Source: Pontiella sp. (lineage in GTDB: Bacteria > Verrucomicrobiota > Kiritimatiellia > Kiritimatiellales > Pontiellaceae). Taken from it: a stretch of DNA of 64,000 nucleotides. Positions 44,201-50,200 of the stretch are shown one piece after another; within the stretch, counting starts at the first letter, position 1, and each line of letters opens with the position of its first letter. The stretch lies in NCBI GenBank assembly GCA_050290185.1, contig JBNKHE010000002.1:256001-320000 (forward strand). Direction: 5' to 3'. The position numbers are program-made.

Positions 44201-47200
44201 AAGCCGCCAATCCCAGCGCGGCGGCGCAGCCGATGGCCGGGGCACCCCGAACCGAAAGCCGCTTGATCGCTGAAACGATTTCTTCGACATCGTCGAGTTC
44301 GAGATAAACCAACTCCTGCGGCAGGCGGGTTTGGTCGATGATCCGCAGCTTGCCGGGCAACAGCTTCACGCCCTCTTCACTGCCAGCGAGCACCTGTCCT
44401 TCGGTAGTTATCCAGCGTACGGTTTCCAACATAGAGATATTCCTTTCCTTACGGAATCGCGCTATACCATTCCGCAAAGCGCAAGCGAAGGAAAGGGAGA
44501 AATGAACGAGCAAAAACAAGCCGTAGCCGACTGCATGAACCGTCTCTACCGGCAGGGGCTGACCACCACCTCCGGCGGCAACATTTCCCTGCGCCTTTCC
44601 GAAGACCTCATCCTGCTCACCCCATCCGCCACCGACAAGGGCAACATGACGGCTGACCAGATTGCCGAGATCAGCATGGACGGCACGAACTATACTTCGC
44701 ACCTCAAACCCAGCGGCGAAACCTCGATGCACCTGGAAATCTACAAGCGCCGTCCCGATGTGCAGGCCATCGTCCACGCCCATCCGCCGATGGCCAGCGT
44801 GTTTGCCGTGATCGACAAACCGCTCAATGTCCGCCTGATTGCGGAATCGTACGCCATTCTCGGCACGCCCGCCATCGCGCCCTATGCGCTGACCGGAACG
44901 CAGGAGCTGGCGGATGCCGTGGCCGCTTGCCTAACCGGAAACACCGCCTGCGTCCTGATGAAAAACCATGGAGCTCTGTGTGTTGGCGGCAGCCTCCTCG
45001 AAGCCTTCGACCGCATGGAAGTGCTGGAAAACGCCGCCAAGATCAACCTCTTCGCCGCTCAGCTTGGCGGGGTGCATGAACTGAACGACGCGCAGTGCGC
45101 CGCGCTCGACGATTGGGTTGGACGCCATGGCTGACATCGTCCTCGCCGCGTTCAACGCCCGCTATGCGCACAGCTCCTTCGGCGCGCGCTACCTGCTCGC
45201 CAACCTTGGCGAAATGCAGGAACAGTCCGAACTGTTGGAGTTCGATCTCGCCGTCCAGCCGCGCATCGCCGTAGAAAAGATCCTCGCGCACCACCCGCGC
45301 ATCGTCGGTATCGGATGCTACATCTGGAACATTGACCTCGCCACCCAAGTCGCCGCCCTGCTTAAAGCCATCCGGCCCGACATCGCCCTCGTTCTCGGCG
45401 GCCCCGAAATCAGCTACGAAACCGAGCAGCAGGAAATCTTCACCTATGCCGACCACGTCATCTGCGGCGAAGGCGAAATCGAATTCCCGAAACTGTGCTC
45501 TGCTCTTTTATGCAGGCGGAACGCCTGCAATACAACGGATGTACCGCAGGCGTCCCGCCTGCCCCGCATCATCCACGCCGAGCCGGTGGATGTATCGCAG
45601 ATCGAGATGCCGTACGAGCTCTATACCGACGAAGACATCGCCCATCGAGCCATCTATGTCGAGGCCTCGCGCGGGTGCCCGTTCCGGTGCGAATACTGCA
45701 TGTCGTCGCTCGATCCGTGCGTGCGCTATTTCCCGAAGGAGCGGTTTCTCGCCGCGATGGGAAAACTGCTCGACCGTGGGGCCCGCACGTTCAAGTTTGT
45801 CGACCGCAGCTTTAATATCGACATCCCCTTCGCGCTGGAAATCCTCGCCTTTTTCCGCGAGCGCTACACGCCGGACATGATGCTCCATTTCGAAGTCATT
45901 CCCAGCCACCTGCCGGACGAACTGATGAATGCCGTCAAGGAATGCTCGCCCGGCATGCTCCAGTTCGAGATCGGCATCCAGACCTTCAACGAAGAGGTCG
46001 CCCACCGCATCCAGCGCCCGCTCAACATCGCAAGGGTCGAAGCCAACATGCGGCGGTTGCGCGCGGAAACGGGCGTGCATATCCATGCCGACCTGATTGC
46101 CGGCTTGCCCGGCGAAGATATGGAAAGCTTTGAAGACGGCTTCAACCGGCTGCTGTCGCTCAATCCACAGGAGATCCAGCTCGGCATTTTGAAGCGCCTG
46201 CGCGGTGCGCCGATCGACCGGCATACCCGTGACTGGGACATGGTCTACAGTCCGCACGCGCCCTACGAAATCCTGCAAACCAGTCTGATCTCCTTCGAGC
46301 AGATGCAACGCATCCAGCGTTTCGCGCGCTACTGGAACCTCACCGTCAACAACGGTCAATTCATCCAAACCGCCCCGCTGATTTGGCAAACCGTACCGCA
46401 GGCGTCCCGCCTGCCCGAGGAAGCCGTACCGACAGGTGATTGCGCGCAAGCAAGCAATCTTCGCCTGCCTCCCGAAACAACCGGATTCAATCCGCACCGG
46501 GAAATTCACCAAACTCGACGCAAACACTATCCCCACTGGACGCAGGATGATTCCACCTATTTCGTGACATTCCGGCTGGCTGATTCGATACCGCAGTCCC
46601 GCATAAAGGAATACGAGGAATTGCGCCGCAAATGGGAAGAACATCATCAACCGCCCTATTCGGAACAGGAACAGATCCGGTTTAACGAGCTGTTCTCAAA
46701 CCGAATCAATGAATGGCTGGATGAAGGCGCCGGCTCCTGCTGCCTGCGTGATCCGGAAATTTCGCGGATGGTGGCCGATACGCTGCGTCACTTCGATGGC
46801 GACCGCTACGACCTGGATGAATGGGTGGTCATGCCCAACCATGTTCATCTGCTGGTACGTCCCCGGGCAGGGCATGAACTTCCGGACATCCTGCATTCTT
46901 GGAAATCGTTTTCAGCCCACGCTATAAACACTTCTCTGAAGCGAACCGGAAAACTCTGGCAGACCGAAAGCTACGACCACATCGTTCGAAACATGGAAGA
47001 ACTGCACCGGATTCGAAGCTATATCCGGAAAAACCCGGAAAAGGCCGGCATTCGTGTTTCCCATGCGGGAAGCAGGCGGGACGCCTGCGATACAGCCCCC
47101 GAGCTGCAGGACGCCCCAGCCGTACCGACAGGTGATTGCGCGCAAGCAAGCAATCTCCGCCTGCCAGAGCAAACCGTACCGCAGGCGTCCCGCCTGCCAC

Positions 47201-50200
47201 AGGAGTCATCCCCATTCGCGGCCTTCATGCAGTGGAGCGACTGGCTCTATGCCCAAACCAACACCACCGGTAACCTGCACATGCTGCGGCTCGCCAAATT
47301 GCTGATGCAGTTTCTGACCAAGGAAAAAGGATTGGATCCACAAGCCGTGGCCGAAGCACTCTGGAACGACTACCAGCGTGGAAACCGCCCCGATATTCCC
47401 GGCTTCCTGAAAAAGTTTGGGTTTGGACAAGGCCGGCAAGATGCCGGCGGTACCAACGAACCACAGGCGTCTCGTTTGCCTCGTCAGTCGCGGCACTTGT
47501 AATGCCCGTTCATCTCATCTAGAAAGAACATCATGACCGAAGAAAACAAGAACAGCGGCGGGCAACTGAGTCTACTGGTCGCCATGCAGAACGTTGAGCC
47601 CGTGTGCGAATGGGTGCGCGAAGCGCTGTGCAAGGAACCGATCGAAATGTTGCGACCATTGGCTGATGAGGCGCAGATCGAAGTCTATTTCGACTCCCTG
47701 CTCGAAGCGCAGATTGCGCAAAAGGCCCTACCGCCGGAACTGAACATTCTCGCCGCCGAAGCCAAGGAATATCTGGAGCAGGACTGGACCACCTTCTGGC
47801 AGCACCATTTCAAGACCATGGAACTGGGCCATAACCTGCGGATCGTGCCGGAATGGGAAGAAGCGCCCGAGGATGAGCGAATCAATATCATCATCAATCC
47901 CGGCCTAAGCTTCGGTACCGGAGGGCACTTTACCACCAAATTCTGTCTGGAGGCGCTGGAGCAGGCGGTACAGGAACTGAGGCCAGAAACCATGATCGAC
48001 GCCGGCACCGGCAGCGGGATCCTTTCCATCGCCGCCATCAAACTCGGCATCCCCGACATCGTGGCATTCGACTACGACCCGGTCTGCGTGGATCAATGCA
48101 ACGAGAATGCCGAACGCAACGGTGTGGAGGGAATGATCCACTTTTTCCAGGTCGACGTGCTGGAGCCGGGATGGAACGCCAAACCGGCCGATATCGTCTG
48201 CGCTAATATCCTGACCTCGGTGCTGCTCGACGCCGCGCCGCTGATCAAGCGCGCCGCAAAGAAACGTATCCTGCTCAGCGGCATCCGGGAAATCGAAGCC
48301 GATGCCGTTGCAGAAACCTTCATCCAGCTCGGAGGTCGCGAGGTCTCGCGCGATGGTGACGGGCAATGGTGCGGGCTGGTGATCGATGTCTAAAAAACGC
48401 AAAAATAAAATCAGCAAGCGGACGCGTCTCGATGGCTATCTGGATCTTTTCATACTGGGTATTTTTACCGCCAGCCTGCTCGGACTCCTTGGACGGCTCA
48501 ACTGGTTTTTCGACCTGTTTTCGCACTTCCGGGTGCAGTACCTGCAACTTTGCCTCATCCCGTTTATCATTGCACTTTGGACACGGCGAAACAAACAAGC
48601 ATTGGCGCTGGTGGTGCTGGTGTGCTTTAACTATGTCTTTGTCCTCCCGCTCTACTTCGGCAAGCCTGCTCCGGCAACAGAGAAACCGATCCGTGCCATG
48701 TTAATGAACATCAACGCCGGCAACGGCAATACGGAGCAGGTGCTGGCGTCGATTGAAGGATTCGCCCCCGATGTCCTGCTGCTGGAGGAGGTGACCCCGA
48801 AATGGGTGCACGAGCTGGAATCGCTGAACGCGACGTATCCCTATCGCATCGCCGAGCCCCAGGAGGGTTGTTTCGGCATGATGCTGCTCAGCAAATATCC
48901 GCTCGAACACGGCAAAGTCGAGCTGATCGGAACAGCCGGTGTTCCTTCGGTCGTTGCCGAGTTGTATTCCCCTCAAGGCGTGATTTCCATCATTGGAACG
49001 CATCCCCTTCCGCCCGTCGGCGCCGAAGGTTCCCGGCAACGAAACATACAGTTGGAAGATCTTCCACGTATTGTGCATCAGCAAGAATATCCTGTACTGC
49101 TCATCGGTGATCTGAACACGACGCCGTGGTCGTCCCACTTTAAGAAACTACTGAATGAATCCGGCCTGAAAAACAGTATGAAGGGATTCGGGCACCAGCC
49201 CAGCTGGCCGGAAAACATGTGGTTCATGCGCATTCCGCTCGATCACATGCTGTATTCCGACGGCATCAAGATCCACAACCGTATGATTGGCCGTGATGTC
49301 GGTTCGGATCACTTTCCAGTGATCGTGGATTTTTCCCTATAGCAAGGCGCCTCAATAAGATTCCATCTAAAAAGAGTGCATGGCTCCCTTTTCCTGTACA
49401 TGCCATTGAACATGATTAAAACTATCACGTTGTAGGACGTGACGGGCGGCCATTCCGCCTGACGTGTTAATCGACTGCGGCCCATCCGCCCATCCTGCAT
49501 GCGTTAGCACCGGGGAAAAACATGAGTGGGCAACATCAGGGAAGCGGACCTCCGCGCGCGGACTATCGGCATGCATATCCGGTTTTTGTGATCGTCATTA
49601 TCCTGGCGATAGCAGGTCTGGCCGTACGGGCGCATCTTGTTCCGAACACGTTTGGCGAGACCGGATTCTACCGTGGTGGTGATATCACCGATGAACAGCA
49701 GCGCCAACCCCGCTATGCCGGGCAGGCCGCCTGCGAAGAATGCCATGACGATGTGACGGCCATACATGCCAAGGATGTGCACGCTTCCGTTCAATGCGAG
49801 ACCTGCCACGGTCCGGGTACAGCCCACATTGAAGATCTGGATAATACAATGTTTCCAGCCAACCGGAAAGAAGACTGCCTGGTATGCCACCGCCAGCTGG
49901 ACGCCCGGCCGGGCTCATTTCCGCAAGTGGTCTGGACCGAGCACTTCAAGTTTGTCGGTGTCACGGACACCAACATTGCCTGCGTACGCTGCCACTCTGG
50001 CCACGAACCGCTCTTCACGGACCATGATCTCCGCCAGGCACGCCTCCATCCGCTCATTCAGGACTGTGCCGACTGTCATATTGGCCTGACGGATGAACAG
50101 CTCAAGCAACCGGCCGATCATCCGCGAATCTTCCATTGCGCGGACTGCCATCCCACGATTTATGCTTCGTTCATGAAGGACGAACATCGCAGCATCTCCT

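Follow-up and report, generated by a model that had tools for sequence, protein, structure and literature searches.

The locus lies in a 64,000-nucleotide window of a Pontiella genome, the window being the whole stretch of DNA that was analysed, and consists of a single stop-free frame that translates into 791 aa (Table 1). Its ATG overlaps the stop codon of a class II aldolase gene upstream, and the stop-to-stop frame around it begins with a TTG at 45118. The frame encodes, in order, a B12-binding/radical-SAM (rSAM) core, a REP-coded linker, a complete RAYT (HUH/Y1), a second REP-coded linker and the C-terminal part of DUF4080. A first-pass annotation of this DNA had proposed that a whole RAYT module sits in frame in a B12-rSAM gene, which is borne out by the open frame, where host domains precede and follow the RAYT. 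The Pfam matches it had listed were exactly reproduced: B12-binding at residues 9-122, Radical_SAM at 179-337, DUF4080 at 369-423 (covering only positions 2-56 of the 188 in the profile) and Y1_Tnp at 560-635. The CxxxCxxC motif of the host is intact, and the host gene, for which the housekeeping role named in the first-pass annotation is putative, is present in 46 of 54 genomes of the family.

Table 1. Coordinates of the nested RAYT locus, as positions in the window
Feature	Position	Strand
ORF of 791 aa, B12-rSAM/DUF4080 host with nested REP-RAYT module	45127..47502	+
Host N-part, aa 1-421: B12-binding, radical-SAM core, first 55 DUF4080 positions	45127..46389	+
Site 1: in-frame REPIN in linker between B12 and rSAM domains, read as LLCRRNACNTTDVPQASRLP	45505..45564	+
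Site-1 REPIN half, inverted REP	45512-45528	
Site-1 REPIN half, direct REP	45546-45562	
CPFRCEYC of radical-SAM core	45676-45699	+
Left outer REP (GTAC foot, 7-bp stem, 3-nt loop), read as TVPQASRLP	46390..46416	+
Left copy of 46-nt direct repeat (longer imperfect hairpin, 'REP-B'), read as AVPTGDCAQASNLRLP	46424..46469	+
RAYT (Y1/HUH) domain, aa 450-648	46474..47070	+
HUH motif MPNHVH	46831-46848	+
WQTESYDHIVR	46957-46989	+
Y motif YIRKNP, aa 632-637	47020-47037	+
Inverted REP immediately 3' of RAYT (+ strand reads SRRDACDT)	47071..47094	-
Right copy of 46-nt direct repeat	47120..47165	+
Right outer REP, read as TVPQASRLP	47173..47199	+
Host C-part: remainder of DUF4080, helical (pLDDT 76-96), ending in conserved tail LPRQSRHL	47209..47502	+
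Sixth REP, degenerate with 4 mismatches, reading PQASRLP, directly ahead of conserved C-terminal tail	47460..47480	+

The RAYT domain scores 74.6 bits with the NCBIfam REP_Tyr_transpos model (residues 542-642), just below the cut-off of 80, and 24.2 with the IS200 model against a cut-off of 55. Its motifs fit subclass 2.7 ([ND]HVH, WQ, YI[LR][NQ]NP) or 2.4 as given in the relevant passages of Quentin 2018 (PMC6006769), whose Table 1 lists YIxxNP as the Y motif of RAYTs. ESYDHIVR was therefore wrongly taken for the catalytic-tyrosine motif in the first-pass annotation: Y[DE]H occurs in only 34 of 69 RAYTs, and the position of its tyrosine is a phenylalanine in the PriA, PcnB-like, MVD and CmoB-like RAYT clades. 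The tyrosine of Y[IVT]xxN is conserved in 68 of the 69 RAYTs of the family, as is the HUH motif, for which the remaining copy reads NHAH. The N terminus of the nested domain, ETTGFNP..YPHW, carries no methionine; stand-alone relatives have one 3-9 residues ahead of the same F[ND]P..LPHW N terminus. Between host part and RAYT core, no in-frame ATG, GTG or TTG exists in 11 of 15 carriers, and the other four carry such codons only in the repeat-bearing linker ahead of the RAYT, at positions that are not conserved. The nested RAYT has no start codon of its own.

The module is surrounded by REP hairpins. At up to three mismatches, ACCGCAGGCGTCCCGCCTGCC has five matches in the window (0.01 expected), four of them within the gene, and only seven outside the gene in the whole 3.58-Mb genome, the same counts as had been obtained before (four and about seven). 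The exact hairpin GCAGGCG-NNN-CGCCTGC occurs nine times in this genome, five times in the B12-rSAM gene, and REP hairpins number 22-61 in four relatives. With so tiny a REP population, the transposase may have little to do here. The direct repeat that brackets the RAYT, previously put at 41 nt, does exist but measures 46 nt with one mismatch, and is absent elsewhere in the genome. Its copies are spaced by 696 nt (232 codons) and the outer REPs by 783 nt (261 codons), left to right; the REP arrays adjoining the RAYT repeat at 33- and 51-nt periods, free of indels (0%). What had been described as a solo REP at residue 141 is instead a REPIN, whose two REPs stand in inverted orientation and form a single ssDNA hairpin (-23 kcal/mol, z -6.5). 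The right outer REP pairs with the inverted REP, and the large hairpin that results has -40.3 kcal/mol and z -4.7; the degenerate REP folds no better than shuffles (z -0.39).

In an AlphaFold2 model of the full protein, obtained from an 87-row alignment, host and RAYT are both well folded (pLDDT 77.8, pTM 0.63). In Foldseek searches its host part matches the B12-rSAM methylases CysS, TokK and TsrM (E 2.5e-17 to about 1e-12), and its RAYT part, with pLDDT 77-96 across residues 468-652, matches 4ER8, the structure of TnpA_REP with its REP hairpin (E 3e-5, TMt 0.61). The REP-coded linkers are predicted to be disordered: apart from a three-residue dip at 358-360, pLDDT values below 50 are confined to residues 140-142, 426-467, 653-691 and 774-791, all of which are REP-coded. 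Such linkers would be accessible to proteases, and together with the possible start codons in the repeats of four carriers they could allow the RAYT and/or the host C-part to be made as separate proteins, by proteolysis in the linkers or internal non-canonical initiation, the fusion then being a mere translational vehicle or annotation view. We regard this as rather unlikely. A conserved start before the RAYT is lacking in the other 11 carriers, and separate products would not need the strictly stop-free frame found in all carriers and in 43 nested RAYTs of other genes; proteolysis after translation as one chain, moreover, fits a single polypeptide and does not oppose it.

Orthologues of the gene were compared in 36 related genomes. 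The RAYT lies at site 2 in eight and at site 1 in seven, 19 are RAYT-free and two are interrupted by contig ends. Both insertion sites and the insert-free class had been described from 14 loci; all these classes were found again, but the present counts replace the earlier ones. Every orthologue frame is open, as it was in the smaller set, including all 15 RAYT carriers, whose modules measure 243-387 aa. The module is dispensable and frequently lost, and alleles without it occur alongside this genome in its samples; 19 of the 34 complete orthologues are without it, and eight of these 19 carry an in-frame inverted-plus-direct REP pair at site 2, a REPIN footprint that is the expected product of recombination between flanks such as those of one carrier (G053). 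In the RAYT tree, copies group by host gene (14 label changes versus 47.3 in shuffles), and within the rSAM clade (support 100/97) site-1 and site-2 copies are mixed, with a Fic-fused copy nested among them. In the host tree, in which only 8 of 29 forks are well supported, starred forks join carriers with RAYT-free genes, in agreement with the earlier placement of insert-free genes among carriers. The trees show repeated gain, loss and site switching of the module.

While present, the module is under purifying selection equal to that on the host parts, as had been claimed. In 11 of 12 pairs, dN/dS is 0.05-0.17 for the RAYT and 0.03-0.15 for the host, with one RAYT dS not computable and dS saturated (>1) in most pairs; the least saturated pairs give 0.165 versus 0.152 and 0.118 versus 0.117. 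The statement that the transposase is kept by selection can be upheld for its coding sequence as long as it is there; the module itself is often lost.

The B12-rSAM gene is one of many hosts. In the same family, 43 in-frame RAYTs were found in eight other genes, namely PriA (16), a poly(A)-polymerase/CCA-type enzyme (9), XseA (8), mevalonate-PP decarboxylase (4), TatD, HsdR, Fic and a CmoB-like enzyme, and 54 of the 61 best RAYT matches lie within open frames of at least 440 aa. Several paralogous RAYTs can occur per genome, each in a different host gene, with one copy per given lineage. Elsewhere in the phylum, 19 of 20 long RAYT frames sampled have host Pfam domains, hosts including ValS, LeuS, HypF and restriction-modification enzymes, among others. 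One database search returned 1962 proteins of 435-1385 aa that contain this RAYT; the same architecture is found in 44 of 120 database clusters listed and in 15 species of the family, and more than 25 unrelated host families are involved, including rSAM, MVD, MetH, IspG, HypF, Mur ligase and glycosyltransferase. The fusions also occur in isolate genomes, those of Pontiella sulfatireligans and Pontiellaceae bacterium B12227 and B12219 (NCBI names), and so are no artefact of metagenome bins. Cognate REP hairpins always accompany the RAYT domain and co-vary with its lineage, each sister lineage having its own REP family, and these lineages share the nested life style across many host genes throughout Verrucomicrobiota.

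Many of these hosts act on DNA or RNA (PriA, XseA, TatD, HsdR, RarA/MgsA, tRNA synthetases), which raises the alternative that the RAYT was recruited for a host function, e.g. nucleic-acid binding or localisation, and is no longer a transposase. Purifying selection and one copy per genome would suit such domestication, and according to the abstract of Bertels 2017 RAYTs are generally regarded as domesticated, although a passage search found no mention of fusions. However, the patchy presence with repeated gain and loss at two sites of one gene, the number of unrelated hosts, the constant company of co-varying REPs and the conserved catalytic HUH and Tyr make domestication, in our judgement, improbable.

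Alternatively, the module could be a removable interruption, excised as DNA (RAYT-mediated, from ssDNA) or as RNA, with the working enzyme made from the restored gene and the open frame incidental. The TnpA enzymes of IS200/IS605, relatives of RAYTs, excise precisely from ssDNA, and the RAYT is bracketed by direct repeats. Moreover, in two of the four runs holding this genome there are contigs that skip from 46389 to 47209. These contigs carry 9-10 different letters at the joint (GACGCTCCT, read as DAP), which are those of the empty site WQDAPSPF of other species, and therefore look like a co-occurring insert-free relative, as had been suspected, rather than an excision product. Excision would also not select for a stop-free in-frame module, repeat units of whole codons and a low dN/dS in the fusion frame, and we consider this account very improbable. 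That a transposon has inactivated the host gene, which would now be decaying, or that the ORF stems from faulty assembly or annotation, is already contradicted by the low host dN/dS in carriers, the intact CxxxCxxC, the same architecture in isolates and across species and database clusters, and junctions spanned by contigs of four independent runs, even though RAYT proteins that were 'unexpectedly long' are set aside in a passage of Quentin 2018 (PMC6006769), where they count as 'gene fusions or annotation errors'.

The reading that we prefer, with a probability of about 0.7, is that of a single polypeptide with a host-nested RAYT, gained and lost under the guidance of REPs, with sister lineages living likewise in hosts of the Verrucomicrobiota. 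A TnpA_REP-like RAYT would be tethered by flexible REP-coded linkers in a permissive linker of the B12-rSAM enzyme, and the element, having lost its start codon and presumably also its promoter, would be expressed whenever its host gene is translated. The hairpins of REPs and REPINs, which serve such transposases as DNA substrates, may settle first, in frame, in tolerant linkers. The RAYT, together with the REPs beside it, could then move into settled REPs or recombine with them. This course of events would account for its presence at one or the other of two linkers that bear REPs, for the directly repeated REP(IN)s that always bracket it and for its ability to hop to a neighbouring gene. Loss would follow from recombination or cleavage between the flanking direct repeats and, because these are spaced by whole codons, would leave an in-frame REPIN footprint. 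Translation as a fusion and transposase activity are what we infer from sequence; purifying selection and the kept catalytic motifs suggest that the transposase is most likely active on the small genomic REP population. Apart from the corrections given above, the computational claims of the first-pass annotation held up or were strengthened, and its interpretation is supported.

Several known systems can be compared with this arrangement. REPtrons, reportedly described by Nunvar in 2010, are RAYT (TnpA_REP) genes flanked by REP hairpins. Like them (E. coli TnpA_REP, PDB 4ER8; Quentin 2018, PMC6006769; Corneloup 2021, PMC8266576), the module has HUH, YIxxNP and WQ motifs, a Y1 fold with flanking REP hairpins in both orientations, and one copy per lineage per genome with dispersed cognate REPs. 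Unlike them, it has no start codon of its own and is nested in frame in a host ORF between REP-coded linkers, its REP populations are very small, several paralogous RAYTs occupy different hosts in one genome, and the hairpins have as their 5' foot the tetranucleotide GTAC or GTAT instead of the canonical GT[AG]G. In the passages of Quentin 2018 (PMC6006769) on subclass 2.4 tnpA_REP genes, REPs lie in frame without disrupting the gene, so REP-coded peptides can be tolerated; there, however, the REP lies within the RAYT gene, whereas here RAYT and REPs lie within another gene. Intragenic palindromes, such as REPs inside ORFs (Di Nocera 2013, PMC3733652) and Rickettsia RPEs, are likewise read through in frame in loops and linkers of normal proteins, genes for replication and repair being frequent hosts, and resemble the site-1 REPIN, the site-2 footprints and the C-terminal REP. 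Those insertions are non-coding and 20-150 nt long, whereas here the mobilising transposase is included (about 800 nt, a folded domain of ~200 aa). With IS200/IS605 the module shares a Y1 HUH transposase, subterminal hairpins and ssDNA chemistry, but not multiple IS copies, TnpB or gene-disrupting insertion.

In its life style, the module can also be likened to inteins with homing endonucleases, as the first-pass annotation had done: a selfish DNA enzyme sits in frame in a conserved host protein, is translated by the host, and is patchily distributed with empty alleles. The likeness goes no further, as a Hint domain and splice-junction residues are absent and the insert would be retained after maturation of the protein. 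Its enzyme, an HUH/Y1 transposase, acts on ssDNA hairpins and is no homing endonuclease, and the insert occupies poorly conserved linkers, not catalytic motifs. As with inteins, the nested position might, speculatively, protect the element from decay because the host enzyme would not survive a frameshift or any deletion that is imprecise, a persistence strategy that could be called intein-like without protein splicing. Our literature searches returned no description of RAYTs nested in frame in host enzymes, as the first-pass annotation had stated of this way of life. The main new result is that nested in-frame RAYTs extend far more widely than the B12-rSAM gene.

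RAYTs, or REP-associated tyrosine (HUH/Y1) transposases, are classically regarded as free-standing, 'domesticated' transposases present once per genome, and their biology is still under debate. The first-pass annotation had described a complete RAYT module lying in frame within the gene of a B12-binding radical SAM (rSAM) enzyme of Pontiella sp.; the observation is real, and its interpretation has the support that sequence analysis can give. As outlined in the table, the module occupies the linker before the host C-part (site 2) and brings with it REPs, the palindromic hairpins of RAYTs, while a REPIN, consisting of two inverted REPs, lies in the linker that joins the B12 domain to the rSAM domain (site 1). 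The direct-repeat pairs are spaced 696 and 783 nt, both whole numbers of codons, and the module junctions read WQ/TVPQ and RLPQES/SPF. The G+C content of the insert (0.53 to 0.55) is lower than that of the host parts (0.58 to 0.63), with a genome mean of 0.543. Upstream lies a class II aldolase gene whose stop overlaps the rSAM ATG; other neighbours are a divergent IF-2B/MtnA-like gene upstream on the opposite strand and PrmA downstream. The overlap and the IF-2B/MtnA-like neighbour make a link between the rSAM enzyme and methylthio-sugar metabolism possible.

Features of the rSAM gene and its nested RAYT module (aa, residue of the fusion protein)
Feature	Position	Reading or remark
rSAM gene	window 45127-47502 (+)	single stop-free frame, 791 codons
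Overlap of rSAM ATG with aldolase stop	window 45127-45134	ATGGCTGA
Host N-part	aa 1-421	
B12-binding (Pfam)	aa 9-122	
Site-1 REPIN	within host N-part, B12/rSAM linker	LLCRRNACNTTDVPQASRLP
Radical_SAM (Pfam)	aa 179-337	
Cluster motif	aa 184-191	CPFRCEYC
DUF4080 (Pfam)	aa 369-423	first 55 profile positions only
REP	aa 422	TVPQASRLP
46-nt second repeat, first copy	after aa-422 REP	AVPTGDCAQASNLRLP
RAYT		ETTGFNP..YPHW through YIRKNP
NF047646 (NCBIfam)	aa 542-642	profile positions 27-136 of 146
Y1_Tnp (Pfam)	aa 560-635	
HUH motif	aa 569-574	MPNHVH
WQ motif	aa 611-612	WQ
Y motif	aa 632-637	YIRKNP
Inverted REP	3' of RAYT	SRRDACDT
46-nt repeat, second copy	3' of inverted REP	1 mismatch; absent from rest of genome
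Second REP	after second 46-nt copy	TVPQASRLP
Host C-part	from aa 695	
Degenerate REP	directly before conserved tail	tail LPRQSRHL

The host has the B12-binding domain, the CxxxCxxC motif and the core fold of a cobalamin rSAM enzyme, and in Foldseek searches its part of the chain matched the cobalamin rSAM methylases CysS, TokK, TsrM and MgmA. The nested domain can be recognized as a RAYT by its HUH, WQ and Y motifs, by its Pfam Y1_Tnp score (35.1 bits, cut-off 23) and by a Y1-transposase fold like that of TnpA_REP, with a Foldseek match to 4ER8_A, TnpA_REP with bound REP hairpin, at E 3e-5 and TMt 0.61 over 174 columns. The pattern N-H-[VI]-H is kept in 68 of 69 family RAYTs, the remaining one reading NHAH, and the tyrosine of the Y motif, given as YIxxNP in Table 1 of Quentin 2018 (PMC6006769), is also retained in 68 of the 69. 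It had been proposed that the tyrosine of 'ESYDH' is the catalytic one; this must be given up, since Phe takes its place in the PriA, PcnB-like, MVD and CmoB-like clades. The domain scores 74.6 bits against NCBIfam NF047646 (REP-associated tyrosine transposase), below the cut-off of 80. It is present as one copy, as judged by tblastn of the domain against the genome. A distant Y1-type match (31% identity over 93 aa) was noted outside the window, at G000:C2:67720-67986 of this genome (G000). The point of difference from other RAYTs is that this one is not a free-standing gene with its own start. AlphaFold2, run on an 87-row alignment of site-2 carriers, empty orthologues and RAYT domains of paralogues, predicted that host and RAYT both fold well (pLDDT 77.8, pTM 0.63). 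The pLDDT falls below 50 in the REP-coded stretches (140-142, 426-467, 653-691 and 774-791), as well as in a 3-residue dip at 358-360.

REP hairpins flank the RAYT on both sides and recur elsewhere in the genome, as is characteristic of RAYTs. Of 9 copies of the hairpin GCAGGCG-NNN-CGCCTGC in the 3.58-Mb genome, 5 lie inside the gene and 4 elsewhere; the 21-mer reported in the first-pass annotation could be recovered, with 4 matches in the gene and 7 elsewhere in the genome at up to 3 mismatches. Chance can be dismissed as the origin of this motif, given 5 matches in the window versus 0.01 expected and the z-scores against shuffled folds. For instance, the site-1 REPIN folds as single-stranded DNA at -23 kcal/mol (z -6.5); no significant fold was found for the degenerate C-terminal REP in the shuffled-fold test. 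Cognate hairpins number 22 to 61 per genome in four relatives versus 0 to 1 in a control. As described in Corneloup 2021 (PMC8266576), single-stranded REPs are recognised, cut and recombined by TnpA_REP, with the GTAG foot as guide. The foot of the REPs in this gene is GTAC in direct copies or GTAT in inverted copies, followed by one base and then the stem, and so differs from the canonical GT[AG]G. In an in-frame check, most other REPs of the genome lay outside long open reading frames or at frame ends; in-frame REPs are thus concentrated in this single gene.

Nested copies all open with ..P(E/D)xTGFNP..(L/Y)PHW and contain no Met there. In 11 of 15 carriers, the stretch from the end of the host part to the xPHW motif is devoid of in-frame ATG, GTG and TTG; the other 4 have such codons at non-conserved places in the repeat-bearing linker 5' of the RAYT. 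Stand-alone relatives in the same genomes have Met 3 to 9 residues ahead of the same F[ND]P..LPHW motif. A start codon belonging to the RAYT itself was searched for and is absent in this gene. Purifying selection acts on both partners, with dN/dS (Nei-Gojobori, 12 pairs) of 0.03 to 0.15 for the host parts and 0.05 to 0.17 for the RAYT in 11 pairs, RAYT dS not being computable in the twelfth. The least saturated pairs give host and RAYT values of 0.152 and 0.165 (G013-G048) and 0.117 and 0.118 (G033-G027), with dS above 1 in most of the others. A pseudogene or assembly artefact can be ruled out by these dN/dS values together with the DNA-run contigs and the fusions found in databases. Translation of RAYT and host as one chain would best explain why the frame is strictly kept and free of stops, why the repeats span whole codons, why the RAYT has no start and why purifying selection acts in the fusion frame; the REP-coded peptides may then act as flexible tethers of the RAYT in the host chain.

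Of 54 family genomes, 46 have the host gene; the locus was examined for 36 genomes. A RAYT was found at site 2 in 8 (G000, G050, G053, G020, G021, G017, G048 and G013) and at site 1 in 7 (G051, G033, G027, G024, G052, G018 and G004), with 19 lacking a RAYT and 2 cut by contig ends. All loci are single open frames, with no stop within any host match, and the module measures 243 to 387 aa. Site 2 is empty in 11 of the 19 RAYT-free genes (..LIWQ(2-4 aa)SPFAAF..), and the remaining 8 retain an inverted-plus-direct REP pair or a REP remnant, for example WTGGRRAACDTAPNVPQAARLLPVNGNSPF. Such footprints are the expected leftover of recombination between identical flanks, as exemplified by the G053 carrier, in which RRDACDTSGSVPQASRLP stands on both sides of the RAYT. 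REP arrays adjoining the RAYT have a period of 51 nt in G013 (5.8 and 4.9 copies) and of 33 nt in G017 (3.5 copies), each with 0% indels. Six genomes of the same genus (G005, G006, G007, G011, G039 and G040), which measure 0.9 to 1.3 Mb at a completeness of 61 to 87%, gave no match to the host gene or the RAYT.

Site 1 is a hot spot for several repeat families. The site-1 linker of RAYT-free species (loci L006-L027), corresponding to window 45505-45564, is occupied by another in-frame palindrome, some 30 aa long and reading ..HEDTK..(loop)..SCLRGEK.., whose arms are reverse complements in the reading frame; the same element was seen in a loose contig end of run X3. G051 probably carries RAYTs at both sites of one rSAM gene: the contig with the site-1 copy (L031, C174) breaks off in the N-terminus of a further RAYT, at site 2, a different contig (L089, C129) begins in a RAYT and continues into the host C-part, and the two G051 RAYTs fall in different subclades.

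In a tree of 69 RAYTs, copies group by host gene (14 label changes versus 47.3 in shuffles), and those of the rSAM enzyme form one clade (100/97), within which sites 1 and 2 intermix, with 3 changes for site 1 and 5 for site 2. Nested inside this clade is a RAYT fused to the C-terminus of a Fic protein. In G024 (L034, C137; genes at 932-2695 (-) and 2752-5031 (-)), the Fic-RAYT lies 57 nt downstream of a site-1 rSAM-RAYT; two RAYTs of one lineage within 4 kb suggest a local hop. The host-part tree is weakly resolved, with 8 of 29 forks well supported, and supported forks join a carrier with a RAYT-free gene (G050 and G016, 99/92) and G020 with the footprint-bearing G031 (96/92). The RAYT dS exceeds the host dS in several pairs, for example 2.46 versus 0.75 between G053 and this genome, which fits replacement or exchange of the RAYT rather than strict co-divergence with its host. 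The tree mixing, the pairings of carrier and RAYT-free genes and the dS values argue that, over evolutionary time, the module is acquired and lost and shifts from one REP-bearing linker to another. Contigs from four DNA runs containing this genome were also checked, and those from two of them skip from 46389 to 47209 (depth 7.5 and 2.9). These contigs were rejected as excision products, since the joint carries 9 to 10 other letters (GACGCTCCT, read as DAP) that match the empty-site sequence of relatives. They point to a co-occurring insert-free relative or allele.

The nested habit is widespread and is not a curiosity of one gene. An open frame of 440 to 1271 aa encloses 54 of the 61 best RAYT matches in the family (E up to 2e-43); of the other 7, four abut contig ends, one is interrupted by a stop and two have the length of a stand-alone RAYT. 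Pfam was run on 44 such frames to identify the hosts. The RAYT sits between the 3'-DNA-binding domain and helicase of PriA (16 copies), is internal in a PolyA_pol/HD enzyme (9), splits the Exonuc_VII_L domain of the exonuclease VII large subunit XseA (8) and the N-domain of mevalonate-diphosphate decarboxylase, MVD (4), and is C-terminal in TatD (3) and Fic (1) and internal in HsdR (1) and a CmoB-like methyltransferase (1). The flanking repeat peptides are specific to each host in the family, and there are up to four RAYT fusions per genome, for example in G052, G027 and G028. The PriA, XseA, PcnB-like, MVD and TatD genes of this genome contain no RAYT, leaving the rSAM fusion only. The RAYTs in the PriA of 16 family genomes belong to two clades, and one such fusion was seen in a genome of another family (loci L039-L050, L059, L060, L062, L078, L079 and L106). 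PriA is a replication-restart helicase, and the hosts XseA and MgsA/RarA likewise act on single-stranded DNA or forks; residence in such hosts might bring the transposase to its single-stranded DNA substrate. An XseA subclade (L056-L058, from G024, G051 and G023) has MANHVH or MENHVH for MPNHVH and YI(R/Q)xNL for YIxxNP, changes that could reflect relaxed or altered activity.

In the wider phylum, RAYTs at E up to 1e-25 were found in 101 of 401 sampled genomes, and among the 150 matches listed, 55 lie in open frames of at least 400 aa. Twenty such frames were fetched from outside the family and 19 have host domains, namely HypF, six Eco57I/MmeI-type restriction-modification enzymes, a DUF1156 methylase, two HsdR, NUDIX, ValS, LeuS, an N6/N4 methylase, PriA, a Mur ligase, MgsA/RarA, an FAD oxidoreductase and a GT4 glycosyltransferase. 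Repeated palindrome-coded peptides bracket the RAYT in all of these host frames. A protein database queried with the RAYT part returned 1962 proteins of 435 to 1385 aa at E up to 1e-5. Hosts among the 120 listed are rSAM (44), ValS (36), XseA (13), restriction-modification methylases (8), MetH (5), HypF (4), Fic (2), DUF1156 (2), AlaS (1) and IspG (1), with only Y1_Tnp recognised in 4; the RAYT is at site 1 in 28 of the 44 rSAM fusions and at site 2 in the other 16. In database representatives the RAYT lies between host domains according to the Pfam coordinates, and the catalytic domain of the MetH, IspG and ValS hosts is hit as two separate segments. The rSAM fusions are named 'DUF4080 domain-containing protein' by NCBI and 'radical SAM superfamily enzyme YgiQ / REP element-mobilizing transposase RayT' by JGI. 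Isolates that NCBI lists among the carriers include Pontiella sulfatireligans and Pontiellaceae bacterium B12227 and B12219. One database protein, P0002 (661 aa), has two Y1_Tnp stretches and no other recognised domain, and is possibly a pair of tandem RAYTs in one frame.

This arrangement can be compared with known in-frame elements. Intragenic REPs and the RPEs of Rickettsia are short palindromic repeats read through in frame, and the site-1 REPIN, the C-terminal REP and the footprints that relatives have at site 2 are all of this kind. Those elements lack coding capacity, however, whereas the whole module encodes a RAYT. Passages of Di Nocera 2013 (PMC3733652) report REPs within open reading frames, many of them replication or repair genes, as well as Rickettsia RPEs, and passages of Quentin 2018 (PMC6006769) describe in-frame REP insertions in subclass-2.4 tnpA_REP genes. 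The module resembles an intein in its in-frame insertion into a conserved host protein and in the empty alleles of relatives; an intein as such is ruled out, as no Hint/intein family was found among the Pfam hits on the gene, and splice-junction residues are missing. IS200/IS605 elements differ in being multi-copy, and the NCBIfam IS200 equivalog scores only 24.2 bits against a cut-off of 55 for this single genomic copy. Full-text searches yielded no description of RAYTs nested in frame in other genes, though papers beyond those searched and supplements might still mention such cases; passages of Bertels 2017 (PMC5581495) leave fusions unmentioned. On sequence grounds, the module is a RAYT-REP element with an unreported habit, start-less and nested in frame in permissive linkers of host enzymes. 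Selection preserves it for as long as it is present, and it has been gained, lost and relocated again and again.

Taken jointly, these results can be read as a guild of RAYTs in the Verrucomicrobiota, Kiritimatiellia included, a reading to which we assign a probability of roughly 0.55. Each lineage would live as a start-less, in-frame domain of a particular host enzyme, such as PriA, exonuclease VII, ValS/LeuS/AlaS, MetH, HypF, IspG, restriction-modification enzymes, the rSAM enzyme or others. It would be translated with the host chain and tethered by its own REP substrates read as protein; the active transposase would seed in-frame REPs in host linkers and move between them, with host function shielding it from deletion. 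If true, start-less RAYTs expressed only as internal domains of essential or conserved enzymes would be widespread, which would change how RAYTs are recognized, as earlier censuses discarded long proteins. The view of how REPs enter coding sequence would change, and so would that of RAYT persistence, with the host gene as protector. The fusions would also provide a natural catalogue of the places where PriA, ValS, MetH, XseA and others can accommodate a flexibly linked domain of 25 kDa. With the nested forms it would become directly testable whether RAYTs act selfishly or to the benefit of their host; isogenic carriers, footprint and empty alleles coexist in cultured Pontiella and in nature. 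Nested RAYTs would then join inteins and RPE-type repeats as a third kind of in-frame selfish element, and would contribute, unrecognised so far, to the evolution of linkers and domain insertions in essential proteins.
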